Positions 28,308 through 58,918 are shown, counted from the first letter of the stretch. The stretch: 64,000 nt of DNA from a candidate division TM6 bacterium GW2011_GWF2_28_16 (GCA_000989185.1 LBNX01000002.1:358012-422011), one strand, 5' to 3'. Notes: generated by a model not told the origin, from the letters alone. Numbers and translations: made by a program.

Positions 28308-28339
28308 CTAGATCCCGGATCGGGGTCCGGGATGACAAG
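28308..28339 (+). repeat. GC-rich hairpin element, family H (CCGG-arm variant)
   Basis: CTAG-ATCCCGGA-TCGGGG-TCCGGGAT-GACAAG, a perfect 8-bp stem, in the 67-nt gap between the 992-aa gene and the OMP gene. Confidence 0.85.
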
Positions 28340-28366
28340 TGCCCGTAAGAATAACAGGAACTGTTT

Positions 28367-29635
28367 ATGAAAAATTTAAAAATTATTTTACTTGGCCTAA
28401 GTTTTTCAACTTTGGCTTTGGCATATCCACCTTCAAATTTTTTTACGCCATATAATATTAATTGGAGGTTGCCAGATGTTAAAGATAAAAAGTTTTTATT
28501 TAACATAAATTTTGAACATGGTAATACAAATGATTGTAGAAATGGTGGCGAAGATAAAGCACCGGTTTTAAGATTATATAATGCAACAGAATCTAGTTTA
28601 GCCATGCTTTTGGGTGCTCAAGTTGGTAGTGATATTTATAATAAAGCAAATTTATTATTACCTGCATATGCTCCGGCTACAGATGATGGAGTTAGAGGTT
28701 GCTTTGAACTTGATGGTAAGTTTGAACAAACAAATATTAATTTACTCGCTAAATATAAATTACCTATAGAAACTATACCCGGCAATTTTGATTTACTTGT
28801 TCATGTACCAATGACACATATGGTTGTTAAAGATGTTGTATGGCGAGATTTAACAAAAAATGTTTTAGCATGCGATTTTGATGTTCATGCACAATTAACA
28901 GATGATATTGTAAACAATGTAAATACACTTGGTGATGGATTAAATCTAGAAGGCTTTGATAGAATGGGATTTGGTGATTTAGTTGTTATGTTGTGGTGGT
29001 ATAACGATTATAAACAGCTAAAAGAGCATCTTAAAAATGTAAGACTAAATTTTAGATTAGGGCTTTCGGCTCCAACAGGTCATAAAATAAACGAAGATAA
29101 ATCTATTGATTTTCCATTTGGAAATGACGGTTCTTGGGGTGTTCCATTGGCTGGTGCAATAGACTTAGATTTTATACATGCTTTTAAGTTGGGTTTAGAA
29201 TTTGAAATGTTATTTTTGTTTGATAACACAAGAATTCGAAGATTAAAAACAGATAGTAATCAAACAGATTATTTATTATTGCACAAAGGCAATGCAACAT
29301 TAAGCCAAGGTATGACTTGGAAGTTTAATTTATTTATACAAAAGAAATTTGGAAATTATATTACAGCAAAAATAGCATATCAATTTTTGAAAAAAGATTC
29401 AGACAAGCTTACTGCAGAATCTAATAATTTTGATTATAGCATTATAAATACAGCACAGAAATTACAAGAGTGGATGACTCAAGACTTTATATTTAAACTA
29501 GATATAGATTTATTTAAAGAATCTAGTAAATATGCATTTAAGCCACAGTTTAGTATGTTTGCTAAAGTACCGGTTACAGGGAAACGTATTGTAAGTGCAT
29601 ATACTTTTGGCGGGCAACTAGGATTTAATTTTTAA
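28367..29635 (+). CDS. Outer-membrane beta-barrel protein (porin/anchor-like)
   Basis: Signal peptide ...STLALA/YPPS. Alternating amphipathic strands in the C-terminal half. C-terminal ...GGQLGFNF with terminal Phe, typical of BAM substrates. Confidence 0.65.
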   Translation: MKNLKIILLGLSFSTLALAYPPSNFFTPYNINWRLPDVKDKKFLFNINFEHGNTNDCRNGGEDKAPVLRLYNATESSLAMLLGAQVGSDIYNKANLLLPAYAPATDDGVRGCFELDGKFEQTNINLLAKYKLPIETIPGNFDLLVHVPMTHMVVKDVVWRDLTKNVLACDFDVHAQLTDDIVNNVNTLGDGLNLEGFDRMGFGDLVVMLWWYNDYKQLKEHLKNVRLNFRLGLSAPTGHKINEDKSIDFPFGNDGSWGVPLAGAIDLDFIHAFKLGLEFEMLFLFDNTRIRRLKTDSNQTDYLLLHKGNATLSQGMTWKFNLFIQKKFGNYITAKIAYQFLKKDSDKLTAESNNFDYSIINTAQKLQEWMTQDFIFKLDIDLFKESSKYAFKPQFSMFAKVPVTGKRIVSAYTFGGQLGFNF

Positions 29636-29659
29636 AGAATAAATTAAAAGATGAATTGT

Positions 29660-29800
29660 GCGTATGGCGATAGCCATACGCTACCCCAGTGTTGCCATGC
29701 CTGAAGGCAGGCGTATTTGATTTAGTAACGAAATAATATTTTTTTAATAAGCTTACGTTTATGTAAGCGTTATTGAGGTAGAGGAAGGCTATCGCCTTCC
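29660..29800 (+). mobile_element. MITE-like GC-rich composite palindromic element, family M, copy A (~141 bp)
   Basis: Terminal inverted repeats GCGTATGGCGATAGCCATACGCTACC and GGTAGAGGAAGGCTATCGCCTTCC. Each terminus is itself a hairpin. Two internal hairpins flank an AT-rich core. Collinear with the reverse complement of 60358..60502. Confidence 0.8.
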
Positions 29801-29812
29801 CGTTAAAATTGT

Positions 29813-31051
29813 ATGAACATTCTTTATATAATTACAAAATTAGAACTTGGTGGCGCACAAAAAGTTTGTATATCGCTTTTAGATTATTTCCAAAAAAATA
29901 GTAATTTTGCTGGCTTAATATCTGGCGATCAGGGCGTATTAGTAGATCAAATAAAAGATTTAGATAATATTTTTTTATTACCAGAGTTTAAGCGTGAAGT
30001 GGGAATAAAAAATATATTTAACGAATTTAAATTATTTTTTAAATTAATAAAAATAATAAAAGAAAATAAGAAAAAATATAAAAATTTAATTGTACATACT
30101 CACAGTACAAAAGCAGGTATTTTTGGGCGCTGGGCAGCATTTTTTGCTGGTGTAAAAAACAGAGTGCACACTGTGCATGGTTTTGGTTTTCATGAAGGGC
30201 AAAATAAATTTGTATGGCTTATTATTTATTTGCTTGAATTTTTTACGGCTTTTATTACAACAAAATTTATTTGTGTGTCTAATTTTGATTTAAATACTGG
30301 TTCAAGATTATTGCCATTTTTTAAAAAGCGTTCAAGTGTAATTAACGCTGCAGTAGATTATGAAAAATTTTATTTAGAAAAAAAAGAAATTAAAAATTTT
30401 AATAAAAATTTAAATCAAAAATTTATAATAGGCACAGTGTCTTGTTTTAAGCCTCAAAAAAATTTAATAGACTTATTGCAAGCTTTTAAAAAAGTATTAA
30501 ATAATATAACAAGTGGAGAGCGTCACAGGTTTTGTCATACTGAACTTGCTGTGCCCGACGAAGCTTTACGCGAAGTCTGGGATTCAGCATCCAGAAATAT
30601 AAAATTCAATAATATTCTTTTGCAAATTATAGGTGATGGTGAACAACGTGAATATTTACAAGATTTTATTTTAAAAAATAATTTACAAAATAATATAGAG
30701 CTTTTGGGTTGGCAAGATAACGTTGCAAAATTTATGCATAATTGGGATTTGTTTGCTTTAAGCTCTTTATGGGAAGGTTTGCCTTGTGTAGTTGTTGAAG
30801 CTCGATTGGCAAAATTACCTGTTATTGCTTATAAAATATCTGGAATTCCAGAAGTTATATTCGATAATAAAAATGGTTTTTTGATAGATTCAGGGAACTG
30901 GGAAGTGCTGGCTGAAAAAATTGAATTTATTATAAAAGATAATATTAATCGAGAAAAATTGTCTAATTATAATGATAATTTATCTATGTTTAATAATAAT
31001 TACATGATTAACGAACATTTACTGCTTTACAAAAGCGTTCTTTATACATAA
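29813..31051 (+). CDS. Glycosyltransferase family 4 (GT-B) carrying an in-frame repeat-derived insertion
   Basis: ILYIITKLELGGAQK N-terminus and C-terminal WEGLPCVVVEARLAKLPVIAY (E-x7-E region). The GC-rich segment 30515..30594 encodes SGERHRFCHTELAVPDEALREVWDSASR in the interdomain region. Confidence 0.8.
   Translation: MNILYIITKLELGGAQKVCISLLDYFQKNSNFAGLISGDQGVLVDQIKDLDNIFLLPEFKREVGIKNIFNEFKLFFKLIKIIKENKKKYKNLIVHTHSTKAGIFGRWAAFFAGVKNRVHTVHGFGFHEGQNKFVWLIIYLLEFFTAFITTKFICVSNFDLNTGSRLLPFFKKRSSVINAAVDYEKFYLEKKEIKNFNKNLNQKFIIGTVSCFKPQKNLIDLLQAFKKVLNNITSGERHRFCHTELAVPDEALREVWDSASRNIKFNNILLQIIGDGEQREYLQDFILKNNLQNNIELLGWQDNVAKFMHNWDLFALSSLWEGLPCVVVEARLAKLPVIAYKISGIPEVIFDNKNGFLIDSGNWEVLAEKIEFIIKDNINREKLSNYNDNLSMFNNNYMINEHLLLYKSVLYT
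30532..30594 (-). repeat. Family H hairpin (TGAA-arm variant), degenerate and split by a 33-nt GC-rich insert; lies inside the GT4 CDS
   Basis: TTGTCATACTGAACTTG [33 nt] ATTCAGCATCCAG. Compare the reverse complement of copy 58889..58918, TTGTCATCCTGAACTTG-ATTCAGGATCCAG. Total 63 nt, which is 21 codons. Confidence 0.75.
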
Positions 31052-31138
31052 AAAAAATATTTTGACTTTTAAATTTTTCTTTTGTTAAATTGACCCCACC
31101 AATAGTTTGATTAAAAAGATGAATTGAAAGGTGGGTGA

Positions 31139-31414
31139 ATGAAAAGGTGCGTAAAAGTAAGAGTATTTGGACATGTGCATGGGGTAGGGTATAGAGCTTT
31201 TATTCAAAAACACGCCGAAAAGCTTGCGCTTGAAGGTAAAGTTCAAAATAATGAAGATGGAACAGTAGAAATTTTGGTTTGTGGTTCAGCAGAAAAAATT
31301 GATGATTTAATAGATGTTGTTTATCAGGGACCAGCAAAAGCTAAAATTGAAAATGTCATTATTCAGCCAGTGCAGGCAGATTTTGATTTTAGGGGTGTTT
31401 TTAGGGTTATCTAA
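31139..31414 (+). CDS. acyP: Acylphosphatase
   Basis: VRVFGHVHGVGYRAF (V.G.VQGVGFR motif) and G.V.N..DG.VE. Size 91 aa. Confidence 0.85.
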   Translation: MKRCVKVRVFGHVHGVGYRAFIQKHAEKLALEGKVQNNEDGTVEILVCGSAEKIDDLIDVVYQGPAKAKIENVIIQPVQADFDFRGVFRVI

Positions 31415-31479
31415 AAAAAATAAAAAACTTATCCATTCTTTTTGCAAAACTTTTGTATATAAGTTATTGTCGTAGAATT

Positions 31480-34017
31480 ATGGCAAAAGTTAAGTTTTTT
31501 TTATTGTTTTTAAATATATATTTTTTTGTATTTGCTCAAGAAACTTTTTTAAAAGAGAATTCTTGCTGGATTTTGAAAAAAGTTGCAGTTAAAGGTGTGC
31601 CTTTTGGTAAATATAATTTTTTATCTTTATATAAAATGCAGCAGGGTGATGTTTTTGATATATCTGAGCATGAAGAAGCTGTAAAAAATATTAAAATTTT
31701 ATTGAAAAATAAGGGTTATTTTAATTGTAGTGTTCAAGAAGAATTTATTTATGATAAAAAAAATAAAACAATTTTAGTTAATATTTTTATAAAAAAGAAT
31801 GAAAAATTTTTAATAAATAAAGTTTATTTTGATTTAAAAATAGATAACAGCAAAAAGCTTGAACTAAATATTATAAAAAATCTTGAAAATAGGTTTTACT
31901 CAAAAAGTTTATTATCTAGATATATAAAAAAAATAATAAAATATTGTAAATTAAATGGTTTTACTAATCCTAAAATTTCTATAAAAAAAATAATTAATAA
32001 TTATAGTAAAAAAATAGATTTAACTTTTAATGTTATTCTAGGTAAAAAACAAAAACTAGAATTTATAGGTAATCAATTTTTTACTTCAAGGGATATAAAG
32101 GAAAAATTATTCGGCCTAAATTATCCTGCATGGGCTTTTACTCCAGAAATTATAGCTCAAGAGTTATTTAATTATTATTATAATGTTGGATATTGGAATG
32201 CTGTTATTTTTTATAAAAAATTATTAGATGGCGCTTATTTGTTTAACATAAAAGAAAATGAGCCTGTTTTTGTTAATAAAATTTTACTAAAAGATGAAAA
32301 TAATAATCTTCTACAAGATAATATGTCTTTAAATTCTACAAAAAACTTAGAAAAAAGAATTTTTAGTCAAAAAGTGTTAGATGAAAATCTAAATAATATA
32401 ATGAATTATTACTATAAAAATGGTTTTTGGAATTTTAAAATAATTAATAAAAAATTAAAAAAGAATAAAAAAGATAATACTTGTGATGTTTTTATAAATG
32501 TAAATATGGGTCAACAAAGGCTATTTAGTGATACTCTTTTGCCTGTTGATTTAAGTTATATACAAGAACAAAAAATTGTAATTTTAAAAAAATTGCAAAA
32601 AGAAGGTTATTGGTATGCGAATGTTTATCCTGAAATTAAACAAGAACTAATAGATAAAAAATTAATGGTAAAAATTTCTTGGAATATAAAAAAGGGAGAA
32701 CAAATAAAATTTGGCGATATTACTTTGGGTGGATATACAAAAGTTGCACCAAAAAAAATATTAAAAGAATTAAGTTTTAGAAAAAATGACATTTGGGATG
32801 CAAAAAAAATAGATGAAACAAGAAAAAATTTAAAAAAATTAGATATTTTTAAATCTGTTTTGATAGAGCCAGAAAAGATATCTGAAAGTAAAACAACAGG
32901 ATTTGTTCCTGTAAAATTAAAAGTAATAGATGATGATCCTATCTCTGCAAGTTTTAGATTTGGATACTTTTTAACTAATAAAAACTTTTTATTTAAACGT
33001 GAATCTACTTATAAATTAGGTGGGTCTTTAATTTTTAAAAATCCTACAAATAATTTAGATAAACTTAGTTTAGATGCAGATTTTACACGCTTTGAACGTA
33101 AATTTAATTTAGAATATAAAATATTATCTCCATTTGGAATTAGTATAAAAGATTCAAAGCTTGTTGGAAAAGCAAATATTTATTTTAATAAATTTATAAA
33201 TCCTGTTGCTGTGCAAAATAGCCAATCAGCATATCAGGCTATAGAAAATGGTTTTTTATTTGGGTTTAATAATGAATTTAAGCATGATTATTTTGCAAGA
33301 TTAAATTTTGGCAATGAATGGATAAAAACAGAAAAAGTTAGGGGCAATATAAATTTAGATAGTAAATATATAAATAGAACAGTACCATATTTTTTTGTTG
33401 AGCCTACTATAATAGTAAAAAAAATAAATAGTGAGTTAGATATAAAAAAGGGAAGTATTAGTTTTGGGTCTTTAAAATTTATGGTACCAGAATATACAGG
33501 TAAACCTATTGGCAAATTAACTTTTGAACAATCTGTTTTTGCGCCAATATACAAACAAGTTATTTTTGCAGCCAGATTAAGATTGGGTTATATATTAAAT
33601 TCAAAATTTAATACAATAGAACCTTCGCAAAGATTTTTTTTAGGTGGACCATATTCTGTTAGGGGCTACGACAAAGATGCTTTGCCTCCATATGGTATAG
33701 ATTATTATCTAGATGATAAAAATGTTTTAAAAACACGATACACCATACAGGGTGGCTCAGGTATGCTAAATGGCAATCTAGAATTAAGATTTCCTGTATA
33801 TAAAAATTTTAAGGGTGTAATTTTTCAAGATTTGGGTGTACTTAGCCAAACAGGCTTGCCTGGCTTTTCTGGCAAATGGTATCCATCTACTGGATTTGGG
33901 TTAAGATATAATACGCCATTAGGGGCAATTAGATTTGATCTAGGTTTTAAATGGAAAGATGTTTTACCAAATGATACAAAATATGGTTGGTATTTAACTT
34001 TGGGTGAGGTTTTTTAA
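31480..34017 (+). CDS. bamA: Outer membrane protein assembly factor BamA (Omp85/D15)
   Basis: Signal peptide MAKVKFFLLFLNIYFFVFAQ (ATG 31480; the track starts at 31453). POTRA-like repeats. C-terminal barrel with FFLGGPYSVRGY and GFGLRYNTPLGAIRFDLGF. Terminal Phe. Confidence 0.85.
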   Translation: MAKVKFFLLFLNIYFFVFAQETFLKENSCWILKKVAVKGVPFGKYNFLSLYKMQQGDVFDISEHEEAVKNIKILLKNKGYFNCSVQEEFIYDKKNKTILVNIFIKKNEKFLINKVYFDLKIDNSKKLELNIIKNLENRFYSKSLLSRYIKKIIKYCKLNGFTNPKISIKKIINNYSKKIDLTFNVILGKKQKLEFIGNQFFTSRDIKEKLFGLNYPAWAFTPEIIAQELFNYYYNVGYWNAVIFYKKLLDGAYLFNIKENEPVFVNKILLKDENNNLLQDNMSLNSTKNLEKRIFSQKVLDENLNNIMNYYYKNGFWNFKIINKKLKKNKKDNTCDVFINVNMGQQRLFSDTLLPVDLSYIQEQKIVILKKLQKEGYWYANVYPEIKQELIDKKLMVKISWNIKKGEQIKFGDITLGGYTKVAPKKILKELSFRKNDIWDAKKIDETRKNLKKLDIFKSVLIEPEKISESKTTGFVPVKLKVIDDDPISASFRFGYFLTNKNFLFKRESTYKLGGSLIFKNPTNNLDKLSLDADFTRFERKFNLEYKILSPFGISIKDSKLVGKANIYFNKFINPVAVQNSQSAYQAIENGFLFGFNNEFKHDYFARLNFGNEWIKTEKVRGNINLDSKYINRTVPYFFVEPTIIVKKINSELDIKKGSISFGSLKFMVPEYTGKPIGKLTFEQSVFAPIYKQVIFAARLRLGYILNSKFNTIEPSQRFFLGGPYSVRGYDKDALPPYGIDYYLDDKNVLKTRYTIQGGSGMLNGNLELRFPVYKNFKGVIFQDLGVLSQTGLPGFSGKWYPSTGFGLRYNTPLGAIRFDLGFKWKDVLPNDTKYGWYLTLGEVF

Positions 34018-34397
34018 GAAAAGCTTAAATTTTTTTGGGTTGCATCTACATTCAAATGTAATATTATTTTATATTGAGAATATTCTTCTTTTTCTTTTTC
34101 GAGTTTATTTTCTAAAATATCTTTTAAGCGGGTTTTTTGATTCTCTTTTTCAGTAAAAGCTTTGCTAGTTTCTAAAATTTTTTGTTCTCCTATTTCTATA
34201 CTGTTTTTTAAAGAAATATCTTGTCCTGTTTCTGTTAAAATTTTTTTTAAAATATAATTATTATGTTTTAAATTTTTAAAAATAATTTTGGGATTAAAAA
34301 AATTATTATTTTTATATTTGTTTTTGTATATAAAAACAGTAAAAATAGCTATTAATAGTAAAAAAATTAAAAATAAAGATTTTGTTAATTTGTGCAT
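34014..34397 (-). CDS. Small N-terminally anchored coiled-coil protein, unknown function
   Basis: TM LFLIFLLLIAIFTVFIY, then a charged helical region. The 3' end overlaps bamA by 4 nt (convergent). Confidence 0.45.
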   Translation of the reverse strand: MHKLTKSLFLIFLLLIAIFTVFIYKNKYKNNNFFNPKIIFKNLKHNNYILKKILTETGQDISLKNSIEIGEQKILETSKAFTEKENQKTRLKDILENKLEKEKEEYSQYKIILHLNVDATQKNLSFS

Positions 34398-34597
34398 TAA
34401 AATACCCTAAATAAAAATTCCCAATATAGCTATATTATAAAATACAATTTATAGTGCAACCGTGCATACTATTTCTATTTGTATTTTTATATAATTTCTT
34501 TAAATTGTGCTTAAATAGTTTATAATAATACTCAATAATAAATTAAGAATAAATTAAGTTTAAATTTGGGGTTTTAATATAAAAAGAAAGATTAATT

Positions 34598-35314
34598 ATG
34601 TGTTGCGGACCAGAAAATAATTGTACGAGTAACCATTGTCATGATGAAAAACATAATAATTCAGGAATACTCGAAAAACATAGTACTATAAAAGAAGAAA
34701 TTATTTGTCATTTACCTATAGCTATATTTGCGGTAGCAATGTCTATGGTTGTGTTAAGCTTTTTGACATATTTTGATACAACTGGAGCTAATACTGTAGG
34801 GGCTCATAGGTTATTTCATAATTTTCATTTTTTACATTTACTATTTGCTGCTACTGGCACTGTATTAACTTTTAAAAGATATTCTGTAAGTAAAGTAAAA
34901 GCTATATTTCTTGGTTTTTTTATACCAGTAGTTTTTTGTACTCTTTCAGATGCAGTATTGCCATATTTTGCAGGAACATTATTGGGCGTGGATATGCACT
35001 TTCATTGGTGTTTTATAACAAATTTATCTAGAGTTTTACCATTTGTTTTTGCAGGTATGATAAATGGATGGCTTATGTCTAATCATGATTCTAATAAAAA
35101 ACTTTTTTATTCTCAGGGTTTTCATTTTTTACATATTTTTGTTAGCGCAATGGCTTCTATTTTATATATGGTGAGTTTTGGTTTTGCAAAGTGGTATAGC
35201 CAAATGGGGTTAGTTTTTATACTTATGATTTTGGCTGTTTTAATACCATGTACACTTTCAGATATTGTTGTGCCTATGATGTTTGCAAAAAATAAAAAGC
35301 CAATAAATAAATAA
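34598..35314 (+). CDS. Polytopic membrane protein with internal 3+3 TM duplication and His/Cys motifs; possible metal-ion transporter
   Basis: N-terminal MCCGPENNCTSNHCHDEKH. Repeated motifs HNFHFLHLLF / QGFHFLHIFV and FCTLSDAVLPYF / PCTLSDIVVPMMF. About 6 TM segments. Confidence 0.6.
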   Translation: MCCGPENNCTSNHCHDEKHNNSGILEKHSTIKEEIICHLPIAIFAVAMSMVVLSFLTYFDTTGANTVGAHRLFHNFHFLHLLFAATGTVLTFKRYSVSKVKAIFLGFFIPVVFCTLSDAVLPYFAGTLLGVDMHFHWCFITNLSRVLPFVFAGMINGWLMSNHDSNKKLFYSQGFHFLHIFVSAMASILYMVSFGFAKWYSQMGLVFILMILAVLIPCTLSDIVVPMMFAKNKKPINK

Positions 35315-35418
35315 AAAACGTAAATATTCTTTAATAGAAAGACAAAGTTTTAAAAATTATATAAGATGTGTGTTTGGTGTTTGGAGTTGTTATTGCTGAT
35401 TCGCTTAAGGATACACAG

Positions 35419-36510
35419 ATGAGGCAGATTCGATTTGAAAACGTTAGTAAATCATTTGAAGGTGAAGAGATAATTTCTGGGCTAAGCTTAGAAATTCCTG
35501 CCGGTAAGTTTTTTGCTTTACTGGGTCCATCTGGTTGCGGTAAAACAACACTTTTAAGACTTGTTGCAGGATTAGAATCTGTTGATTCTGGACGTATATT
35601 TTTGGGTGATCAGGATATTACTTATCAGCCAATATTCAAAAGAAGAGTGAATACTGTTTTTCAGCAGTATGCTCTTTTTCCACATTTGTCTGTTTTTGAA
35701 AATGTTGCCTATAGTTTAAGAATTAAAAGAGAAAAAGAAATTTTTGTTCGAGAAAAAGTATTTGATGCTCTTAAAATGGTGCATTTACTAGGCTTTGAAA
35801 ATAAAAATATAAAAAGTCTTTCTGGCGGGCAGCAGCAAAGAGTTGCGCTTGCTCGTGCTATTATAAGTGAACCTGAAGTGTTATTGCTAGATGAGCCATT
35901 AGCAGCTCTTGATCAAAAATTAAAAGAAAAATTATTAATAGAACTGATAGAACTTCAGGATAAATTAAAAACTACATTTGTTTATGTTACACACGATCAA
36001 TCTGAGGCATTAACTGTTGCAGATAAAATGGCAATTATGAATCATGATGGTCATATAGAACAAATTGGTACACCAAAACAAATTTATGAATTCCCTGTAT
36101 CAAGATTTGTTGCTAACTTTGTGGGTAACACAAATATACTATCTGGAAAACTTATAGATGTAGACAACCAACCAACGGTAGAAGTAAAAGGGCTAGATAG
36201 AATTTTAGTTTATATACAGGCACATAAAAATTGGATGATTTTGGGTTGTAATTTATTTGTAAGTATTCGACCAGAAAAAATATTTATTAGCAAAAAAGAG
36301 ATTTCAGGATTTTCGAATCATTTGCAGGGCCGTGTTGATAATATAATTTATTATGGTCGGTCTACTCAGTATAGTTTGATGTTAAAAAATGGTAAAAAGT
36401 TAATTGTATTTGAACAAAACGAAGAGCATTTTCCACAAGAAGTTATAGATTATGATGATATTGTAAATTTATATTTTCAAAAAGAAAATGTAGTACTGTT
36501 GCAGGGGTAA
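35419..36510 (+). CDS. potA: Spermidine/putrescine ABC transporter, ATP-binding protein
   Basis: GPSGCGKTT, LSGGQQQRVALARA, LLLDEPLAALD, plus a C-terminal TOBE-like domain. ATG 35419 with SD AAGGA is preferred over the track start 35368. Confidence 0.9.
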   Translation: MRQIRFENVSKSFEGEEIISGLSLEIPAGKFFALLGPSGCGKTTLLRLVAGLESVDSGRIFLGDQDITYQPIFKRRVNTVFQQYALFPHLSVFENVAYSLRIKREKEIFVREKVFDALKMVHLLGFENKNIKSLSGGQQQRVALARAIISEPEVLLLDEPLAALDQKLKEKLLIELIELQDKLKTTFVYVTHDQSEALTVADKMAIMNHDGHIEQIGTPKQIYEFPVSRFVANFVGNTNILSGKLIDVDNQPTVEVKGLDRILVYIQAHKNWMILGCNLFVSIRPEKIFISKKEISGFSNHLQGRVDNIIYYGRSTQYSLMLKNGKKLIVFEQNEEHFPQEVIDYDDIVNLYFQKENVVLLQG

Positions 36511-36513
36511 TTT

Positions 36514-37383
36514 TTGAATATGAAAATTTCAAAATTTTTTTCTTATGACGATTTACCATTTATTTTTGCAGCTCCTGCTTTTATATGGCAATGTTTATTT
36601 TTATATTTGCCGTTAATTATTTTAATTTTAAATAGTTTGTTGGATTTTAATTATTTAAATCCTTTTACATTATCTGTATATAAAAATATTGTTAACCCAT
36701 TATATTTTAAAGTTATTGTAAATTCTTTGTTTTTGGCTTTAACTACAGCATTTATAGCATTAATTTTTGCTTATCCAGCGGCATATTTTATAGCCTTAAA
36801 AGTTAAAAAATATAAATCGTTATTTTTATTTTCTCTAATATTACCATCGTGGACAAGTTTTGTTGTACAAGTGTATGCCTGGTTTTTTTTGTTAAAAAAA
36901 GGTGGCTTATTTAGTTTTGTATTTCAAAAAATTGGCATATTTTCGCAAGCAACTCATTTATTAAATAATTATTTTGCAGTTCAAATTGGTATGGCATATT
37001 GTTTTTTGCCTTTTATGATATTTCCTATTTATACAGTATTAGAAAAAATGGATAAAACATTAATAGAAGCTTCGCACGATTTAGGAGCAAATAAATTTCA
37101 GACATTTAAACGTGTAATATTTCCGGTCTCTATGCCTGGAGTTGTTACAGGTTTTTTATTAGTACTTGTTCCTACTTTTGGAGAATTTGCAGTGCCGGAT
37201 TTGCTTGGTGGTGGCAAAAAAATATATTGGGGAAGTATTATTGTTGAAAAGTTTTTGTTTGCAAGAGATTGGAAAGAGGGTGCAGCGTTAACAATGTTTG
37301 GTATTTTAACGCTACTATTTGTTTTGGTTTTTATTTTTTTATTATTTCGATTTGTTAAAAAAGTTTTTAGGGTAAAAATTTAA
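36514..37383 (+). CDS. potB: Spermidine/putrescine ABC transporter permease
   Basis: Six TM segments with the EAA loop IEASHDLGANKFQTFKRVIFP. Operon position after potA. The start may be ATG 36520. Confidence 0.85.
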   Translation: MNMKISKFFSYDDLPFIFAAPAFIWQCLFLYLPLIILILNSLLDFNYLNPFTLSVYKNIVNPLYFKVIVNSLFLALTTAFIALIFAYPAAYFIALKVKKYKSLFLFSLILPSWTSFVVQVYAWFFLLKKGGLFSFVFQKIGIFSQATHLLNNYFAVQIGMAYCFLPFMIFPIYTVLEKMDKTLIEASHDLGANKFQTFKRVIFPVSMPGVVTGFLLVLVPTFGEFAVPDLLGGGKKIYWGSIIVEKFLFARDWKEGAALTMFGILTLLFVLVFIFLLFRFVKKVFRVKI

Positions 37384-38181
37384 ATGGTTTTAGGTAAAAG
37401 AACGTTTACAAAATATTTAAATCCAATATCTGTTATATTAACTTATGTATTTTTGTATTTACCAATATTTATATTAATTTTATTTTCATTTAACGATTCT
37501 TCTGTTTCGATAGAATGGACAGGATTTAGTTTTAGATGGTACTATAAACTTTTTGATTCTCCAGAAATTTGGGCTGCATTAGGAGTATCATTAATTGTTG
37601 CTATATCTTCAACATTAATAAGTTTATTACTAGGAACTCTTTTTGTTATATCTGGTAGATGGATAAAAATAGATTTTATTACTAGTTTATTTAATACAAG
37701 TGTAATTTTGCCAGATATAATTTTAGCTGTGAGCGTGCTTAGTATTTTCGCATTTTTACGAATACCATTAGGTTATGGAAGCTTAATTGTAGGGCATACC
37801 ATAATTGGGCTTGGATTTGTTATTCCAATTGTAAAATCTAGATTTCATGAACTTGATCCAGAGCTTACAGAAGCTTCGCTAGATTTGGGAGCGGGTTATA
37901 TTCAAACATTTTTAAGGGTAATTTTCCCATTATTAACACCATCTCTTGTTGCATCTGGATTGTTAGTTTTTACTTTATCGCTTGATGATTTTTTAATTTC
38001 ATTTTTTTGTTCTAGCCCTACAGTGCAAACTTTGTCTGTTTATGTTTATTCTATGATCAAAACTTGGGTAGATCCTACTATAAATGCTGTTTCTACTTTA
38101 TTATTGCTTGTAAGCAGCATATTAGTTTTATTAATGTCTTATTTAAAAGTTGCAGATAAGGTAGTTTCTAATGAACACTAA
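37384..38181 (+). CDS. potC: Spermidine/putrescine ABC transporter permease
   Basis: EAA loop TEASLDLGAGYIQTFLRVIFP. Abuts the potB stop. Confidence 0.85.
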   Translation: MVLGKRTFTKYLNPISVILTYVFLYLPIFILILFSFNDSSVSIEWTGFSFRWYYKLFDSPEIWAALGVSLIVAISSTLISLLLGTLFVISGRWIKIDFITSLFNTSVILPDIILAVSVLSIFAFLRIPLGYGSLIVGHTIIGLGFVIPIVKSRFHELDPELTEASLDLGAGYIQTFLRVIFPLLTPSLVASGLLVFTLSLDDFLISFFCSSPTVQTLSVYVYSMIKTWVDPTINAVSTLLLLVSSILVLLMSYLKVADKVVSNEH

Positions 38182-39277: not shown

Positions 39278-39301
39278 AATATTTTAAATTAAAGGTTTGG
39301 G

Positions 39302-49614: not shown

Positions 49615-50271
49615 TTAGTTTTTTAAAATTAAATTTTGGTCTGAGATATTTTTTTCTAAATTGTTTAAGTCACAGCTTTTATTGTAAATTATTTTTGGTA
49701 TATCATTGGCTAACCCGGGATTTATTTCTTTTGTAATTAATATTATTGGTTCTCTAGAATCATTGTTACTAATTATTTCTTCTCTTTCGATAATATAACT
49801 AACATCTTCAAATTCAAAGTTATCTATTGTACCAATTAAAATTATGCCATTTAAATTTAAGCGTGCGCCTCGTTTTAATATTATTTTTGCGCCGGATTTT
49901 AGAATTAAATAACTGATATCTTCTTTATCAGGCTTATCTATGTAATCTATGTTATTTATATAAAGAGATTCGTATTTTTCTATAATTAAATTTGTATTTT
50001 CTGGTACTATTAATCTTTGATTTGTTTCAAGTTCAATAATATTATTTGTTTTGTTTATTCTATATTTTTTGGAAAAAAATTTAATATCTTCTTGTGATAG
50101 TGTTTGTTTTAATTTTGGAGAATATATTAATTCTTGTTCTGTTTTATAAAAATCATAACGATTTTCGTTTTTGGGATTTTCAAATAAACTTGTTATTTTT
50201 CTAAAAAAACCAAAAGAATTTGTGAAACTAAAAAATAATAAAAAATTTAATAAAATAACTTTTTTTAACAT
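49615..50271 (-). CDS. Secreted beta-rich protein, unknown function
   Basis: ATG 50271 (MLKKVILLNFLLFFSF...) follows a GGAGG SD; the track start is TTG 50289. Strand-like repeats LILKSGAKIILKRGARLNLNGIILIG. Confidence 0.5.
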   Translation of the reverse strand: MLKKVILLNFLLFFSFTNSFGFFRKITSLFENPKNENRYDFYKTEQELIYSPKLKQTLSQEDIKFFSKKYRINKTNNIIELETNQRLIVPENTNLIIEKYESLYINNIDYIDKPDKEDISYLILKSGAKIILKRGARLNLNGIILIGTIDNFEFEDVSYIIEREEIISNNDSREPIILITKEINPGLANDIPKIIYNKSCDLNNLEKNISDQNLILKN

Positions 50272-52102: not shown

Positions 52103-52127
52103 GTATATAAATAAAAATTACCTTTTG

Positions 52128-52155
52128 GCCCGGTTTAATCCGGGCTTTTTTATTT
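52128..52155 (+). terminator. Rho-independent terminator
   Basis: GCCCGG-TTTAAT-CCGGGC followed by TTTTTTATTTT. Confidence 0.75.
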
Positions 52156-52173: not shown

Positions 52174-52203
52174 CTAGATCCTGAATAGAGTTCAGGATGG
52201 CAA
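52174..52203 (+). repeat. GC-rich hairpin element, family H (TGAA-arm variant)
   Basis: CTAG-ATCCTGAA-TAGAG-TTCAGGAT-GGCAA. Sits 19 nt after the terminator and 44 nt before the NurA-like start. Confidence 0.85.
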
Positions 52204-52246
52204 ATATACATGACTGAATACAAAAATAAATGGGTCAATAATTATT

Positions 52247-53509
52247 ATGTTAGATAAAAATAAATTATATTTACAGATTAAAAAAAATGCGCAAAAACTT
52301 TTTAGTGATTTTACTCAAGAATTTGATTTAGCTAAAAAAAAGTGGCAAGAAATTTCTTGTGATATTAATTTTAAAAATAAAGTTGAATTTTCTCATGCTA
52401 GTTTTTTAACTCCAACTTGGCTTGGTAATTTAAATGATAAATTTAAGATCGATAATAAAATTTTTAATTATTCTATATTATCTGTAGATGGTTCTCAGGT
52501 TTATCCAGATCGTAATATATCTGGAGCAAATTGTTGCTTAATAAATATCGGTTCATGTTTAATTAAATATAATAATACAGGCAGCTCCGTCAAAATAGGC
52601 TCTGAGCCACTTTTATTTTTGTTAGATGATTTATTTGAACATGCTATCCCGAGTAAGGACCCGGGATCTAGTGATCTTGTTGATTTAAAGCGAGAAGAAC
52701 TTGAACTTTTAAACTTGTTAAATATAACTTTAGAACAAAATATAGATATAGCATTTGTAGATGGTACTGTAATATTTTGGTTTTTAGAAAGTAAGCCAGA
52801 AGAAGTAAAAAATTTATTTTTAAATTTATATTTAAATATTTTACAAAAATTTTATGATCAAAAAAAAATAATTGCAGGTTTTATAAGCTTTCCCAAAAGC
52901 AAAGAGCTTATTAATTTAATTAAAATTGGCTTGTGTAAGTACGATTACGCTGACTGTATTGCTTGTTATAAAATTTATAATAATAAAGCGTTTGATAAAG
53001 TGGATTCGACTACGCAGCAAGCTGCTGCGCTCACCACGAACGCCCCGTTCGCCCTGAGCGAAGTCGAAGGGGTTGCCATTTCTAAGAATGCTCAGCCCTG
53101 TATGCTTGTTGATAATTTAATAGATACTAAAATATTAAGAAATTTTTTAAATATAAATGAGCGAACTACAGTTTTTTTTAGTAATTCAAAAATTGTAGAT
53201 AGTTATCCAGATTATCTAAAACCCTGTTTTTTTTATTTAAATGCAGGGGTAGAAATTGTACGTATAGAGACTTTTAAATATATTGCACAAGATGAAAAGT
53301 TAATTAATCTTATTGCAAGCGTAGCTCTTGATCAAATTAATAAGGGGCTTGGTTACCCTGTAACTTTGGCTCAAGCGCACGAAGCTGCAGTTGTAAAAGG
53401 ACCAGATAGAGAGTTTTTTTATAATTTATTACAAAAAGAAGCTCTTGATCAATCACGAAGATTAATTTACTCTCAAAAGAGTATAAAAAAACGTGGCACT
53501 GGGGTATAA
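52247..53509 (+). CDS. NurA-like nuclease domain protein carrying two in-frame repeat insertions
   Basis: YSILSVDGSQVYPDR (NurA Asp motif), IAFVDGTVIFW, C-terminal GYPVTLAQAHEAAVVKGPDREFF. GC-rich inserts at 52643..52671 and about 53003..53075. Confidence 0.6.
   Translation: MLDKNKLYLQIKKNAQKLFSDFTQEFDLAKKKWQEISCDINFKNKVEFSHASFLTPTWLGNLNDKFKIDNKIFNYSILSVDGSQVYPDRNISGANCCLINIGSCLIKYNNTGSSVKIGSEPLLFLLDDLFEHAIPSKDPGSSDLVDLKREELELLNLLNITLEQNIDIAFVDGTVIFWFLESKPEEVKNLFLNLYLNILQKFYDQKKIIAGFISFPKSKELINLIKIGLCKYDYADCIACYKIYNNKAFDKVDSTTQQAAALTTNAPFALSEVEGVAISKNAQPCMLVDNLIDTKILRNFLNINERTTVFFSNSKIVDSYPDYLKPCFFYLNAGVEIVRIETFKYIAQDEKLINLIASVALDQINKGLGYPVTLAQAHEAAVVKGPDREFFYNLLQKEALDQSRRLIYSQKSIKKRGTGV
52643..52671 (-). 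repeat. Family H hairpin (CCGG-arm variant), in frame inside the NurA-like CDS
   Basis: GCT-ATCCCGAG-TAAGGA-CCCGGGAT-CTAG, 7 of 8 stem pairs; encodes AIPSKDPGSS. Confidence 0.8.
53003..53075. repeat. GC-rich palindromic insertion (family G) in frame inside the NurA-like CDS
   Basis: Inverted termini TTCGACTACGC (53005..53015) and GCGAAGTCGAA (53058..53068), 10 of 11 complementary. Internal palindrome CGCAGCA-AGC-TGCTGCG. Encodes DSTTQQAAALTTNAPFALSEVEGVA. Confidence 0.7.
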
Positions 53510-53521
53510 TATTGGGCTTTT

Positions 53522-55474
53522 ATGTTAATAGTAAAAAAATTAAGTTTAAACTTTGGTCAGCAAGTAATTTTTGAAGATATTTCGTTTACTGTAAATTCAA
53601 ACGAACGAATTGGTCTTGTTGGGCGTAATGGTTCTGGAAAAACTACTTTATTAAAAATAATAAGTGATTTTAATCAATCAGGTACAAAAGACTTTGATTC
53701 TGGCCAAATAGAGATATATAAAAATAAAAAAATTGCATACTTGCCACAGCAGGTTATTTTAGAGTCAAAAAAAGATATTTTACACGAAGCGCTAAATAGC
53801 TTTATAACAGATTTGGGTTATTTAGGTGATTTAATTCATGAATATAATGATCTTGAAAATAAAATTAATAGTTTACATAATCACGAAGTAAATAATCTTG
53901 AAAGATATTCGAATTTGCAAATTCTTTTAAACGAGCTTAATTTTGAAAAAAAAGTTTTAGAAACTAAAAAGATTTTATTGGGTTTAGGCTTTAGTGAAAG
54001 TATCTTAAAAGATAGCGTACAAACGCTTTCTGTTGGTTGGAAGATGCGCTTGGTTTTGGCTAAATTGTTATTGCAAAAGGCTGATTTTTATTTATTTGAC
54101 GAACCAACAAACCATTTAGATTTAGTAGCAAAAGATTGGTTTTTAGCATTTTTGCAAAATGCTAACTTTGGTTTTATGTTAGTTTGTCATGATAGATATT
54201 TTTTAGATAAATTATGTTCACAAATTTATGAATTATCTTTAGGCCAATTAAATATTTATACAGGTAATTATTCTAAATATTTGGAACAAAAAGAACATGA
54301 TAAACAACTTTTAGAACAAAAATATATAGAACAACAAAAATATATTAAAAAAGAGATGGCTGTAATAGATCGCTTTAGGGCAAGTGCATCAAGATCTAAT
54401 ATGGCGCAGAGTAAATTAAAAGCATTAGAAAAATTAGAACTTGTAAAAATAGAACCAATGCAAAAAATTGTTAAAATAAAATTTAATAATGTAAAACAGG
54501 CTGGCAAAATAGTTTTGACTGTTAAAAATTTAGCAAAATCTTTTGGTGATAAATTAATTTTTAAAAATGTAAATTTTGAAATTGATCGAGGCGAAAAGGT
54601 TGCAATAGTTGCGCCAAATGGTCAAGGTAAGTCGACTTTATTAAATATGATTATGGAGAATATTCTGTGTGAAGACCCGGGATCTAAAATTATTTTTGGA
54701 CATAATGTTTTTCCGGCATTTTTTGAACAGGATCAAAATAAAACTTTAAATCCAAAAAAAACTATATATCAAGAAGTAGAAGATAGCTGTAAAACAACAG
54801 AACAAAGACAAAAAATTAGGACTATTTTGGGCTCGTTTTTGTTTTCTGGTGATGATATCGAAAAAACTATATCTGTTTTAAGTGGTGGTGAAAAAAATAG
54901 AGTTGCAATGGTAAAGGTTCTTTTGCAAGATGCGAATTTTTTAATATTGGATGAACCTACAAATCATCTTGATATAGAATCAAAAGAAGTACTATTGTCT
55001 GTTCTAAAAGATTATCCTGGGACTATATTATTTGTTTCTCATGATCGTGATTTTTTGAATAATTTATCAACAGCTATAATAGAATTAAAACAAGATTCTA
55101 GCTATAAATATAAAGGTAATTATGATGCATTTTTGGAACAAAAAGATGCACAGCAAAATGTAATCGAAAATGTTAAAAATATAGAATTAAGAGCTAATCA
55201 TATTGAGCATGCATTGTCATCCCGGGCAAGGACCCGGGATCCAGAAATAAAACATTCAAATAATTTCTCCAAAAATGATTATGAAACTCGTAAACAAATA
55301 AGAGCATTAGAAAGTAAGATAGAAAAACAAGAAAAAGAACTTGAACTTTTAACTAAAAAGTTTGAAAATTTAGAATATGGATCTAAAGATTATAATAAAG
55401 TTTTAAATGAAATTAATAAAATAGAAAAAGAGCTAAATGAAAATTTAGCTCTTTGGGAAATTTTAAATAGTTAA
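53522..55474 (+). CDS. ABC-F family ATPase (Uup/YheS-like, C-terminal coiled coil)
   Basis: Two ABC cassettes (GRNGSGKTT / LSVGWKMR / YLFDEPTNHLD; APNGQGKST / LSGGEKNR / LILDEPTNHLD), no TM domain, coiled-coil tail. Contains a family H copy and a half-copy in frame. Confidence 0.9.
   Translation: MLIVKKLSLNFGQQVIFEDISFTVNSNERIGLVGRNGSGKTTLLKIISDFNQSGTKDFDSGQIEIYKNKKIAYLPQQVILESKKDILHEALNSFITDLGYLGDLIHEYNDLENKINSLHNHEVNNLERYSNLQILLNELNFEKKVLETKKILLGLGFSESILKDSVQTLSVGWKMRLVLAKLLLQKADFYLFDEPTNHLDLVAKDWFLAFLQNANFGFMLVCHDRYFLDKLCSQIYELSLGQLNIYTGNYSKYLEQKEHDKQLLEQKYIEQQKYIKKEMAVIDRFRASASRSNMAQSKLKALEKLELVKIEPMQKIVKIKFNNVKQAGKIVLTVKNLAKSFGDKLIFKNVNFEIDRGEKVAIVAPNGQGKSTLLNMIMENILCEDPGSKIIFGHNVFPAFFEQDQNKTLNPKKTIYQEVEDSCKTTEQRQKIRTILGSFLFSGDDIEKTISVLSGGEKNRVAMVKVLLQDANFLILDEPTNHLDIESKEVLLSVLKDYPGTILFVSHDRDFLNNLSTAIIELKQDSSYKYKGNYDAFLEQKDAQQNVIENVKNIELRANHIEHALSSRARTRDPEIKHSNNFSKNDYETRKQIRALESKIEKQEKELELLTKKFENLEYGSKDYNKVLNEINKIEKELNENLALWEILNS
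54672..54686 (-). repeat. Family H half-copy (one arm plus flank) inside the ABC-F CDS
   Basis: AAGACCCGGGATCTA is identical to the 3' half of copy 56623..56652; encodes EDPGS just after the second Walker A. Confidence 0.6.
55214..55244 (-). repeat. Family H hairpin (CCGG-arm variant), in frame inside the ABC-F CDS
   Basis: TTGTC-ATCCCGGG-CAAGGA-CCCGGGAT-CCAG, a perfect stem; encodes LSSRARTRDPE in the linker before the coiled coil. Confidence 0.85.
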
Positions 55475-56601: not shown

Positions 56602-56622
56602 TTTTCACCTATTATTTTATGG

Positions 56623-56652
56623 GGTCATCCCGGGCAAAGACCCGGGATCTAA
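56623..56652 (-). repeat. Family H hairpin (CCGG-arm variant) in the ychF 5' leader / divergent promoter region
   Basis: GGTC-ATCCCGGG-CAAAGA-CCCGGGAT-CTAA, a perfect stem, 22 nt upstream of the ychF start codon. Confidence 0.85.
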
Positions 56653-56799
56653 ATACTAGTATAAAAAAATTGATTTTTTTTGCAAAAAGCGTAGTTTAAA
56701 AGCCATTTATTTATTACCATTTGTGAATTTTTATCCAGATGGGATAATTTAAGTGTAAATACATAATTTTGTGTATTTTTAATAAAAAATGAGGTTATT

Positions 56800-57519: not shown

Positions 57520-57536
57520 AAGCTAATGGGGTTATT

Positions 57537-58799
57537 ATGAAATTTTTAAATAAAAAAATATTAATATTATTTTTAAGTTTATTAACATTAAATAATTTTA
57601 GTTTTGGTTCTATAAGAAAAAAGCTTGAAAGACGAAGAGCAGAATCTCCAAATAATTCTAGATTTAATAGAATTGATAAATTTATGTTTGATAAAGAATC
57701 TTTGGACATTATAGGGTTTATTGCGCAAGATGAGATACAAAATGTTTCTGTAGAGTTTAAAGGCTTTTGTTCTTGTATATATTCTTATTTGAATGAACAA
57801 AATAGTTTTAAAAATGTTGAAATTGAAAGTTACATAGATGGAATAGTTGAAAATCTTGTTAATACAAGAAAGCTTAGTTTTGATACTTTTAATTCTATAA
57901 ATAAAGTATCTTTTAAAAAATTATGGACTCAAATGTACAATAACCTAAAAAATGAAGCTTTGAGTTTGGGGATTAGTTGGTCTGAAACATTTTTGATGCA
58001 AGAAATATTAAATGATTATAATAATGAACAAGAAAATTTTGTATTGGATGATGAATCTTTAAATATTATAAATGAATTTGTATCTAATATTTTTATGGAT
58101 TGTTCTAATGAATTTAGAGTTTGGGGTGACAAAATATTATCAAATAGATGCTTATCTAATAAATACGTTTCAATTGAAAAGATAACAGAAAATATAATTA
58201 TAGATTTTGTAAAAAATTGTGGTTACAAATCTGAAGATATTGGGTTTAAAGTTTTATGGACAGAGTTATATAAGAATTTAAAAGATGAAGCAATTAGTTA
58301 TGGTATTAATTGGTTAGATACTAATTTAATGCAAGAAATAGTTGATAAATATGACATAGCAAAAGATTTTGTATATTTATCTAATGATGAAATATATAGC
58401 TCAATTAATACTGTTATAGATATAGTAAAGGGTGAATATATTACTACAACGCCACAATTTAGATCTTTATGTGAAAAAGTTCTTGAATATTATTTACCAC
58501 AAGAATTGCAAGAAACATCATTTGAGATTTTTATATCAGAAAGAGTTGCGGATTTAGTTTTTGGAAAATTGGGTGATATTTCAGAAGAAAGTATAGAATT
58601 TTTTGAAGAATGGTTGGTTATTTATACTTTATTATTTTTTGAAGCAAAAGCTCTTGGAATTGGTGAATTTATATTTCCAAGTAATGATTCAAATACGGAT
58701 ATAATAGGGTATCACCTTAAAGGTGCAGGATTAACAAAAGCTGATTTTATCAAAAAGTTTAATGAGCAGTATCTTAAAAAAGATGATGATAATGATTAA
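57537..58799 (+). CDS. Secreted protein with three ~110-aa internal repeats, unknown function
   Basis: Signal peptide, then SIRKKLERRRAES. Repeated blocks such as FKKLWTQMYNNLKNEALSLGISWSETFLMQEI and FKVLWTELYKNLKDEAISYGINWLDTNLMQEI. Starts 17 nt after the LRR gene. Confidence 0.6.
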   Translation: MKFLNKKILILFLSLLTLNNFSFGSIRKKLERRRAESPNNSRFNRIDKFMFDKESLDIIGFIAQDEIQNVSVEFKGFCSCIYSYLNEQNSFKNVEIESYIDGIVENLVNTRKLSFDTFNSINKVSFKKLWTQMYNNLKNEALSLGISWSETFLMQEILNDYNNEQENFVLDDESLNIINEFVSNIFMDCSNEFRVWGDKILSNRCLSNKYVSIEKITENIIIDFVKNCGYKSEDIGFKVLWTELYKNLKDEAISYGINWLDTNLMQEIVDKYDIAKDFVYLSNDEIYSSINTVIDIVKGEYITTTPQFRSLCEKVLEYYLPQELQETSFEIFISERVADLVFGKLGDISEESIEFFEEWLVIYTLLFFEAKALGIGEFIFPSNDSNTDIIGYHLKGAGLTKADFIKKFNEQYLKKDDDND

Positions 58800-58826
58800 T
58801 GTTAAAAAATATTATATAGTATATTG

Positions 58827-58852
58827 GGGCTGCAGGTTGCAGCCCTTTTTCT
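58827..58852 (+). terminator. Rho-independent terminator
   Basis: GGGCTGCA-GGT-TGCAGCCC followed by a T-run. Confidence 0.8.
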
Positions 58853-58888
58853 TTTAAAGCGCTTTTGGTTATAATTGGTTAAGTTGAT

Positions 58889-58918
58889 TTTTTTATTACT
58901 GGATCCTGAATCAAGTTC
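58889..58918 (+). repeat. GC-rich hairpin element, family H (TGAA-arm variant)
   Basis: CTGG-ATCCTGAA-TCAAG-TTCAGGAT-GACAA, 31 nt upstream of miaB. Its left flank TTTTTTATTAC resembles that of copy 52174. Confidence 0.85.

Follow-up and report, generated by a model that had tools for sequence, protein, structure and literature searches.

A dispersed hairpin repeat in a Dependentiae (TM6) genome and its probable place among the Ssn-related motifs

Background

The hairpin repeats most similar to those treated here were described in Neisseria together with a small nuclease, Ssn, that acts on them (Chenal et al., Nat Commun 2025, PMC11893778). The present study concerns a dispersed hairpin repeat, called family H in the following, in a stretch of 64,000 nucleotides (nt) from the candidate division TM6 bacterium GW2011_GWF2_28_16 (GCA_000989185.1, LBNX01000002.1:358012-422011; this whole stretch is referred to as the window, and positions are counted from its first letter). 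The Neisseria repeat NTS (28 nt, CGTCATTCCCGCGMAVGCGGGAATCYRG) contains dRS3 and forms a hairpin, and the nuclease SsnA, a small single-domain GIY-YIG protein of about 95 amino acids (aa; cd10448), binds and cuts NTS solely as single-stranded DNA; neither double-stranded DNA nor RNA is a substrate of Ssn, and SsnA does not bind RNA (PMC11893778). Binding depends above all on the C directly after the palindrome, cutting on the three bases at the 5' side of the palindrome, and the identity of the loop is irrelevant, with loop extensions being tolerated (PMC11893778). Cleavage thus depends on hairpin plus flank, and it affects transformation in Neisseria; the gene is typically arranged as NTS-ssnA-NTS. 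Similar repeats, named Ssn-related motifs (SRM), have a wide distribution and exceed 300 copies in Rickettsia, Wolbachia, Neisseria, Sphingomonas and Devosia (PMC11893778). From a different line of work, ATGAC is known as the hallmark of the palindromes in the Rickettsia elements RPE-4/-6/-7 and in the Wolbachia elements WPE (Matsutani et al. 2013, PMC3767692).

The hairpin family itself is thus already known, with a name (NTS / SRM) and a cognate enzyme (Ssn). Modestly new are the Dependentiae host, a subtype with CTGAA arms outside the published search pattern, and RPE-like in-frame copies, one of which appears to replace a protein loop. A literature search for palindromic repeats of 'Dependentiae' led to mentions of CRISPR only, and DNA or peptide strings of the element led to primers or to nothing.

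Results

Copies of family H in the window

Members of family H are about 28-31 nt long and possess a GC-rich stem of 8-9 bp and a loop of 3-6 nt; their orientation is set by non-palindromic flanks, the + orientation being CTRGAT..ATGRCAA. The window, with a GC content of 28%, contains six canonical hairpins of around 31 nt, one composite copy with a loop insert of 33 nt, and one half copy. A covariance model of the six compact copies, run over all 64 kb with filters off returned exactly these six, at 41-49 bits, the next best hit (15 bits) being the opposite strand of one of them. All copies that had been listed from the sequence-only reading of this DNA (six canonical, one disrupted, one half) exist in the window, except that the copy at 58899-58930 had been placed about 10 nt too far to the left (at 58889-58918). 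The copies are as follows:

28308-28339, + strand: canonical copy CTAGATCCCGGATCGGGGTCCGGGATGACAAG, intergenic; 45.7 bits in the covariance model; fits the published SRM pattern
30532-30594, - strand: composite copy with arms and flanks of H type (CTGGATGCTGAATC ... AAGTTCAGTATGACAA) and a 33-nt insert between TC and AAG of the loop
30548-30580, - strand: core of the composite copy, CCAGACTTCGCGTAAAGCTTCGTCGGGCACAGC, which is nested in its hairpin loop and belongs to another repeat family
49712-49725, - strand: possible decayed left half, TAAATCCCGGGTTA compared with TAGATCCCGGGTC; weak
52174-52203, + strand: canonical copy with CTGAA arms, intergenic; 41.0 bits; does not match the published SRM pattern
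52643-52671, - strand: canonical copy with one G.T wobble, in frame inside the NurA-like open reading frame (ORF) 52247-53509; 40.9 bits
54672-54686, - strand: half copy (AAGACCCGGGATCTA on the + strand) inside the ABC-F ORF, encoding EDPGSK
55214-55244, - strand: canonical copy, in frame inside the ABC-F ORF 53522-55474; 49.0 bits; fits the SRM pattern
56623-56652, - strand: canonical copy in the intergenic region between divergent genes, sense to ychF and 22 nt ahead of its start codon; 42.1 bits
58899-58930, + strand: canonical copy with CTGAA arms, intergenic; 42.5 bits

In shuffled sequence the pattern GGATCCYGRR-N4-10-YYCRGGAT is expected 0.00 times, and the window holds two matches; CCCGGGAT is found 16 times at up to one mismatch, compared to an expectation of 4.7. 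The copies are unusual in their clustering, five of the six canonical ones being confined to 6.7 kb (P = 0.003 if placement were uniform), and a 6-kb extension of the window (L001) contained no further copy.

The sequence-only reading had located the copies after terminators, in 5' leaders, between genes and inside ORFs, and these contexts were all recovered. Four copies are intergenic; each has the sense orientation relative to the following start codon, which comes 20-44 nt later. The 28308 copy begins 9 nt past the stop of ORF 25321-28299 and ends 28 nt ahead of the start of ORF 28367-29635. A terminator scan placed terminator-like hairpins before two of the intergenic copies: one (52127-52146) lies 28 nt before the 52174 copy, which is followed after 44 nt by the NurA start codon, and the other (58826-58846) lies 53 nt upstream of the 58899 copy, which in turn is situated 20 nt upstream of the miaB start codon. 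Three full copies and the half copy are found inside ORFs, i.e., about half of the copies in the window are in frame in conserved genes. GC skew is positive across the window (1-64000) and most genes are on the + strand, such that the window lies within one replichore; relative to it, the H copies show no strand bias.

Conservation of pairing

Arms of three types occur in the window (ATCCCGGG, ATCCTGAA and ATCCCGGA), and 9-bp stems with -12 to -18 kcal/mol are predicted for the copies. The presence of several arm types with preserved pairing had been proposed before; their number, given as two, is three. For an enlarged comparison, copies were sought by their flanks alone (T-R-G-A-T ... A-T-R-R-C) without imposing pairing, in order to avoid circularity, in about 980 kb of Dependentiae DNA comprising the window, four syntenic relatives and 80 NurA-anchored metagenome loci. 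Watson-Crick pairs at the six inner positions showed a bimodal distribution, with a background of 0-3 and a spike of 13 sites with 6/6, accompanied by three sites with 5/6. An alignment of 17 Dependentiae copies, 16 of them detected by flanks alone, pairs in 99.3% of its cells and exhibits two-sided changes in five of eight pairs (25 cells), values that none of 500 shuffles attains; if the 3' partner is slid by 1-3 columns, pairing falls to 22-53%. Since arm types are inherited as blocks, these cells correspond to about seven independent compensatory events rather than to 25. The compensatory nature of the arm variants, stated earlier for the window, thus also holds in the larger sample, and family H is a real dispersed hairpin family in which pairing is conserved and arm sequence is not.

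Correspondence to NTS and the SRM pattern

Reverse-complemented, the H layout TRG-AT...AT-GACA is that of Neisseria NTS, (T)GTCAT-stem-loop-stem'-ATCYAG. Its near-invariant G at position -1 is the complement of the C most important for binding by Ssn, and its GAC is the complement of GTC. All six canonical copies of the window carry ATCYAG or ATCTAA, and GTCAT is present in four of them, the other two having GCCAT and GCTAT. The published SRM pattern, HGTCWYN(0-2)YYVSBRHN(0-5)WNVSBRGN(0-2)RNCYNB, fits two of the six (28308 and 55214), compared to an expectation of 0.02. Family H is probably the Dependentiae representative of the NTS / SRM hairpin repeats.

Spread across bacteria

The exact pattern GATCC-YGRR-N4-8-YYCR-GGATGRCA was scanned once in a viral and once in a species-representative genome collection. 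It gave 79 matches in 64 contigs of the former and matches in at least 120 loci of the latter, which belong to almost all bacterial phyla. It is therefore too narrow to speak, as had been supposed, of a superfamily common to amoeba-associated bacteria. Hosts among the matches listed include CPR/Patescibacteria (CPR, candidate phyla radiation), Melainabacteria, Bacteroidota, Alpha-, Beta-, Gamma- and Deltaproteobacteria, a Rickettsia endosymbiont, Coxiellaceae, Treponema, Elusimicrobiota, Actinobacteria, Acidobacteria and Firmicutes; again among the matches listed, the loci have a GC content of 0.30-0.75, such that the range including the window is 28-75%. The arms are fully complementary in almost all exact-pattern matches, whereas the pattern alone would allow for this in 1/8. 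The 58899 copy is identical in sequence to copies in unrelated bacteria (the same 26-mer in L022, L027, L094 and others).

A second search accepted any perfect 8-bp hairpin ending in AT and followed by GACA, leaving the 5' flank unconstrained. In the genome loci, ATGACA was preceded by a perfect hairpin in 190 of 658 cases, compared to 0-6 cases for each of nine control tails (none for six of the nine), and 30 distinct arm sequences were found overall. Among 71 copies not selected by the scan pattern, position -1 is G in 68, position -2 a purine in 68 and position -3 T in 49; because of these regularities of the flank the family is written TRG-AT-N6-loop-N6'-AT-GACA. In foreign loci with a GC content of at most 0.5, 119 of 135 copies (88%) are intergenic, in both orientations: between co-directional genes, 31 are sense and 21 antisense, and a further 17 lie between convergent and nine between divergent genes. 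Complete megaplasmids of Sphingomonadaceae carry up to 17 copies each, none of them annotated. Hairpins are also embedded in tandem arrays with a period of around 135-145 nt and conserved flanks, in Melioribacteraceae, in an alphaproteobacterium and in a contig of the viral collection (L148 290-944, L104 46-248 and L023 2406-2706).

The outer flanks CTGGAT...ATGAC had been likened to palindromes that translate into WIPAFAGMT- or VIPAKAGIQ-type peptides, and this assignment is borne out: the Dependentiae-like locus L195 carries CTGGATCCCCGCTTTCGCGGGGATGACA, whose two strands translate to WIPAFAGMT and VIPAKAGIQ, and a Rickettsia endosymbiont (L113) has nine perfect-stem copies within 8 kb. Seven or eight of the latter are of the type CTGGATTCCCGC(C/T)TTCGCGGGAATGACA, which may also be written CTGGATTCCCGC-YTTC-GCGGGAATGACA. 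An inverted doublet of H-type hairpins in the same locus gives, on translation, a weak match to the NCBIfam model RPE4 (TIGR03777; E = 0.0011, 19 bits at a cutoff of 23.95).

GIY-YIG genes bracketed by hairpins

Genes similar to ssn were searched with tblastn, using a consensus probe that served as a lead only; matches were verified with Pfam. L195, which had been obtained through its NurA gene, contains a 93-aa single-domain GIY-YIG gene (PF01541, E = 6e-18) flanked by CGTCATCCCCGCGAAAGCGGGGATCCAG on one side and by the inverted partner of this sequence on the other; upstream, the hairpin is that of NTS with one compensatory pair change. The same bracketed arrangement exists in L135 (Rhodospirillaceae) and, with CCGAA arms, in L097 (Kerfeldbacteria), and the Dependentiae-like L198 retains the C-terminal remnant of a GIY-YIG gene between two copies of CTGAA type. 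In a further Dependentiae-like locus (L242, 4940-5360), the inverted hairpins on either side of a 95-aa GIY-YIG gene are of another kind, GTCGTTGCGAGCGCAAGCGAAGCAATCCAG / CTGGATTGCTTCGCTCACGCTCGCAACGAC, which suggests a second Ssn-hairpin specificity in the phylum. Judged from their sequence, Dependentiae-like contigs carry a putative SRM-ssn-SRM unit similar to an insertion sequence (IS).

At E <=1e-10, 5,717 homologues of the L195 protein are found, some of them named Dependentiae or Babeliales and many on very short contigs. Most of the close homologues (P0241-P0360) are on contigs of 0.5-3 kb, as would be expected if the gene with its flanking repeats were multi-copy and broke assemblies.

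In-frame copies inside conserved genes

The best named relatives of the window proteins are from Candidatus Dependentiae/Babeliales (TM6), to which ABC-F shows an amino-acid identity of 66-68% and the glycosyltransferase one of up to 81%. In ABC-F, the 55214 copy encodes LSSRARTRDPE in the variable linker that precedes the C-terminal coiled coil, where the window protein is 8-15 residues longer than 15 Dependentiae homologues. At the half copy (54672-54686) the same protein is two codons longer than its homologues; this half copy is partly ambiguous, since GGATCT also encodes a conserved native Gly-Ser. The composite copy, which encodes FCHTELAVPDEALREVWDSASR in frame, falls into the interdomain linker of a GT4/GT1 glycosyltransferase; most homologues are here 26-29 aa shorter than the window protein. 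In the NurA-like protein, the 52643 copy encodes AIPSKDPGSS and sits in place of an 8-codon loop conserved in the syntenic relatives L067 and L068, which, from the alignment, looks like a replacement, or like an insertion followed by a compensating deletion. The alignment gaps suggest that the in-frame copies are placed at solvent-exposed sites, i.e., in linkers or variable loops of GT1, NurA and ABC-F.

The NurA-like gene additionally contains, at 52991-53098 (GC island 53006-53077), a clean GC-rich in-frame insertion of 36 codons encoding NKAFDKVDSTTQQAAALTTNAPFALSEVEGVAISKNAQ. This element is distinct from H and absent from L067 and L068.

Turnover among relatives

Comparison of orthologous loci, as had been proposed, revealed filled and empty sites. 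The relative L189 is 84-87% identical in DNA to window positions 25973-39637 and has kept the 28308 copy at its orthologous site (2325-2359) with two substitutions, one of them giving a G.T wobble; the spacer downstream of this copy cannot be aligned between the two. At the site of the composite copy, L189 shows only a decayed remnant. An extra H copy, not present in the window, is found in L189 at the 5' end of a glycosyltransferase gene (EIPGQARDD). In L067, three H copies occupy sites that are empty in the window, with arms that are new yet complementary (ATCCCGCA/TGCGGGAT and ATTCTGAA/TTCAGAAT), and an inverted doublet is situated at 7629-7710; the intergenic counterpart of the ychF-upstream copy (56623) contains no H copy in L067 or L068. 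In other Dependentiae the family is rare, with six matches in 855 kb (80 loci). Copies are thus gained or lost at different sites among relatives and are clustered locally.

Concerning the extra copy of L189, the called N-terminus of protein P0121, the closest homologue of the glycosyltransferase, runs through it (3670-3730; MVFKKEDEIPGQARDDSQK...), and is probably either a mis-called start or an extension derived from the element. The matching intergenic site of the window carries instead two copies of a second GC-rich hairpin family, built on GGCTATCGCC / GGCGATAGCC. This family has five exact copies in the window (expectation at up to one mismatch: 0.63), and its outer arms vary compensatorily (GGAAGGC..GCCTTCC and GGAGGGC..GCCCTCC); two of its copies flank the genes for tRNA-Cys / tRNA-Leu. 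Its positions are:

29666-29675: copy of the GGCTATCGCC / GGCGATAGCC family
29787-29796: copy of the same family
40307-40316: copy of the same family
60363-60372: copy of the same family
60489-60498: copy of the same family

The 33-nt insert of the composite copy (30548-30580) belongs to yet another repeat family, CCAGRCTTCGCRTAAAGCTTCGKCGGGCACRGCRAG. Sequence of this family, around 85% identical, is found in opposite orientation in the same glycosyltransferase (GT1) linker of L190 (2990-3030), and a similar peptide (HTQPSRKAMAGTASV) forms the N-terminus of the homologue P0130.

Discussion

Proposed mechanism

In single-stranded DNA the H element would fold, as is known for the repeats of Neisseria and Wolbachia (PMC11893778), and a single-domain GIY-YIG Ssn of about 95 aa would bind its stem together with the following C and cut that strand a few nt 5' of GTCAT. 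Such a protein would read the shape of the stem along with the sequence of the flank, which would explain why the arms drift only in a compensatory manner, why the flanks are fixed, and why the loops are free and tolerate inserts as large as that of the composite copy. An ssn gene bracketed by two inverted copies would constitute an IS-like unit, from which orphan copies might scatter through the genome. We infer that the genome studied here has, or had, an Ssn acting on H, and nicking by this enzyme may seed new copies; those found in frame may persist because only events compatible with a loop or linker survive in a gene-dense genome. If nicking initiated a templated patch repair, a stretch of similar length would be replaced rather than a copy simply inserted, which would explain the gain of 6 nt at the NurA copy and likewise at the ABC-F half copy. 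Hairpins with CTGAA arms (abundant in CPR, Melainabacteria, Bacteroidota and spirochaetes) may represent a large SRM branch with an Ssn specificity of its own that the published pattern misses. That Ssn/SRM is the unrecognised engine behind the 'protein-coding palindromes' of several phyla, beyond the Rickettsia elements RPE-4/6/7, with entry by patch repair and with CTGAA as a separate SRM branch, is put forward here as a speculative and rather doubtful extension.

Several observations weigh against the assignment of family H to the SRM and of its spread to Ssn. The cleavage-side flank deviates in three window copies (GCCAT, GCTAT and GGGTCAT). The SRM pattern is satisfied by only two of the six canonical copies and by 79 of 272 perfect hairpins overall, and never by CTGAA, CCGAA or GCTGAA arms, which are yet the commonest types in the sample; CTGAA-arm copies cannot match it, because V excludes T. 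The search for ssn genes or remnants of them yielded none in the 64-kb window, in its 6-kb extension or in the close relatives L067, L068, L189 and L190. The L195 protein matches PF01541 and is a candidate member of cd10448; its only solved relatives (PDB) are GIY-YIG proteins of UPF0213. The NurA copy, finally, is not a clean insertion of 30 nt, the net gain being two codons (6 nt) only, and such an outcome is without a published mechanism.

Alternative explanations

An unlikely alternative is that H is a selfish palindrome similar to REP or RPE and moved by another enzyme, such as a RAYT, an HUH transposase of IS200/IS605 type or a hairpin-targeting recombinase of IS110 type, with Ssn being irrelevant in this genome. 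The elements are indeed short, REP-like and in other bacteria mostly extragenic, they form inverted doublets resembling REPINs in L067 (7629-7710), L123, L008 and L113, the window lacks a detectable ssn gene, and a phage recombinase is known to act on dRS3 (PMC11893778). The GTAG/GTGG head of RAYT-associated REPs, however, is not seen, and a Y1 transposase is found neither among the 25 Pfam families listed (of 58) for the window ORFs nor among recurrent neighbours. No other transposase occurs among these 25 families either, and clustering of ORFs of >=80 aa across 184 foreign hairpin loci yielded no recurrent neighbour protein (two adjacent ssn genes were missed in this analysis, because they were too few to form a cluster). 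The small GIY-YIG gene is the sole gene repeatedly bracketed by these hairpins, which speaks for Ssn rather than for one of the other enzymes.

Still less probable is an action of the hairpins in RNA, as stabilisers of 5' leaders or 3' ends, processing sites or attenuators that are kept by the host for the sake of expression. This would agree with the sense orientation of the four intergenic window copies, 20-44 nt before the next start codon, with the two copies that follow terminator-like hairpins, and with the 28308 copy being better conserved in L189 than its flanking spacer. However, the 135 foreign copies have no strand preference, and the three copies inside ORFs are antisense to the CTRGAT..ATGACA orientation; a T-run is present in none of the copies, and SsnA does not bind RNA (PMC11893778). 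In an Rfam scan of the window, two tRNAs alone reached the gathering score, and nothing matched the hairpins, even at E up to 10.

Chance GC-rich palindromes or artefacts of assembly or composition, for which nothing but the small copy number speaks, have a negligible probability, given the expectation of 0.00 matches in shuffles, the gap between 41-49 bits for six copies and 15 bits for the next best hit, the recovery of the same sequence in independent JGI (Ga0209417_1000379, 111 kb) and Logan assemblies, and the presence of one copy at the orthologous site of an independent assembly (L189).

Further candidates were set aside on reading the sequence: a miniature inverted-repeat transposable element consisting of a pair of terminal inverted repeats (the outer flanks lack symmetry), an attC site (GTT/AAC boxes are not there), a K-turn or box C/D-like motif (these need GA after a 3-nt bulge, which is missing), a fragment of a tRNA T-arm, 16S or tmRNA (no match) and a REP of RAYT type (no GTAG head). 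ATGACA as a -35 promoter box was likewise rejected, as the copies are too near to start codons and convergent contexts outnumber divergent ones.

Implications

Assigning family H to the SRM would place the system of Ssn and hairpin in Dependentiae, an uncultured phylum of obligate intracellular bacteria, in a genome with a GC content of 28%. It would also link by sequence one hairpin that goes under three names, i.e., dRS3/NTS in Neisseria, RPE-4/6/7 in Rickettsia together with WPE in Wolbachia, and SRM. Arms of the AT-richer types CTGAA and CCGAA escape the published SRM search pattern. Concerning annotation, the hairpins yield spurious or extended ORFs (WIPAFAGMT, VIPAKAGIQ, IPGQARDD) as well as in-frame inserts in real proteins, and their recognition would lead to better gene calls in metagenome-assembled genomes.

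Comparison with known systems

Family H is most similar to the SRM/Ssn system. Both comprise an oriented hairpin of around 28 nt with flanks GTCAT ... ATCYRG, a stem in which pairing is kept and a free loop; both are spread across phyla, enriched in symbionts and clustered locally around genes. The SRM-ssn-SRM unit also occurs in the Dependentiae-like L195, and two of the six canonical window copies fit the published pattern. There are some differences, however: Dependentiae are not named in the main text of PMC11893778, the CTGAA-arm subtype of H lies outside the pattern published there, and an ssn gene was not found in 70 kb. About half of the H copies are in frame in ORFs, whereas intragenic copies and RPE are not mentioned in PMC11893778.

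With dRS3, the palindromic part of NTS, family H shares the hairpin core with its closing AT pairs. The Neisseria element is reportedly ATTCCC-N8-GGGAAT. Its arms are TCCCGC, in contrast to CCCGGG, CCTGAA and CCCGGA in H, and dRS3 / NIME are present in Neisseria in hundreds of copies in mosaic arrays, whereas H copies are singletons.

Equally to the RPEs, H is found in frame in loops of housekeeping proteins and carries ATGAC. The RPEs, however, are 68-192 nt long, consisting of one or two such hairpins and a spacer, whereas H is a bare hairpin of 29-32 nt, and the H peptides of the window match none of the NCBIfam RPE domain models. The host phylum is another one, and RPEs are reported as clean insertions, whereas the H copy in NurA takes the place of a loop (+6 nt).

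REPs and REPINs, finally, resemble H as short, mostly extragenic hairpins that are found in either orientation, at times as inverted doublets, and that have one trans-acting gene flanked by copies. They differ in their GTAG/GTGG head, which H lacks, and in the associated gene, which encodes a Y1 HUH transposase in REP/RAYT and a GIY-YIG nuclease here. Furthermore, REPs vary between genera, whereas the H motif keeps the same flanks across phyla.

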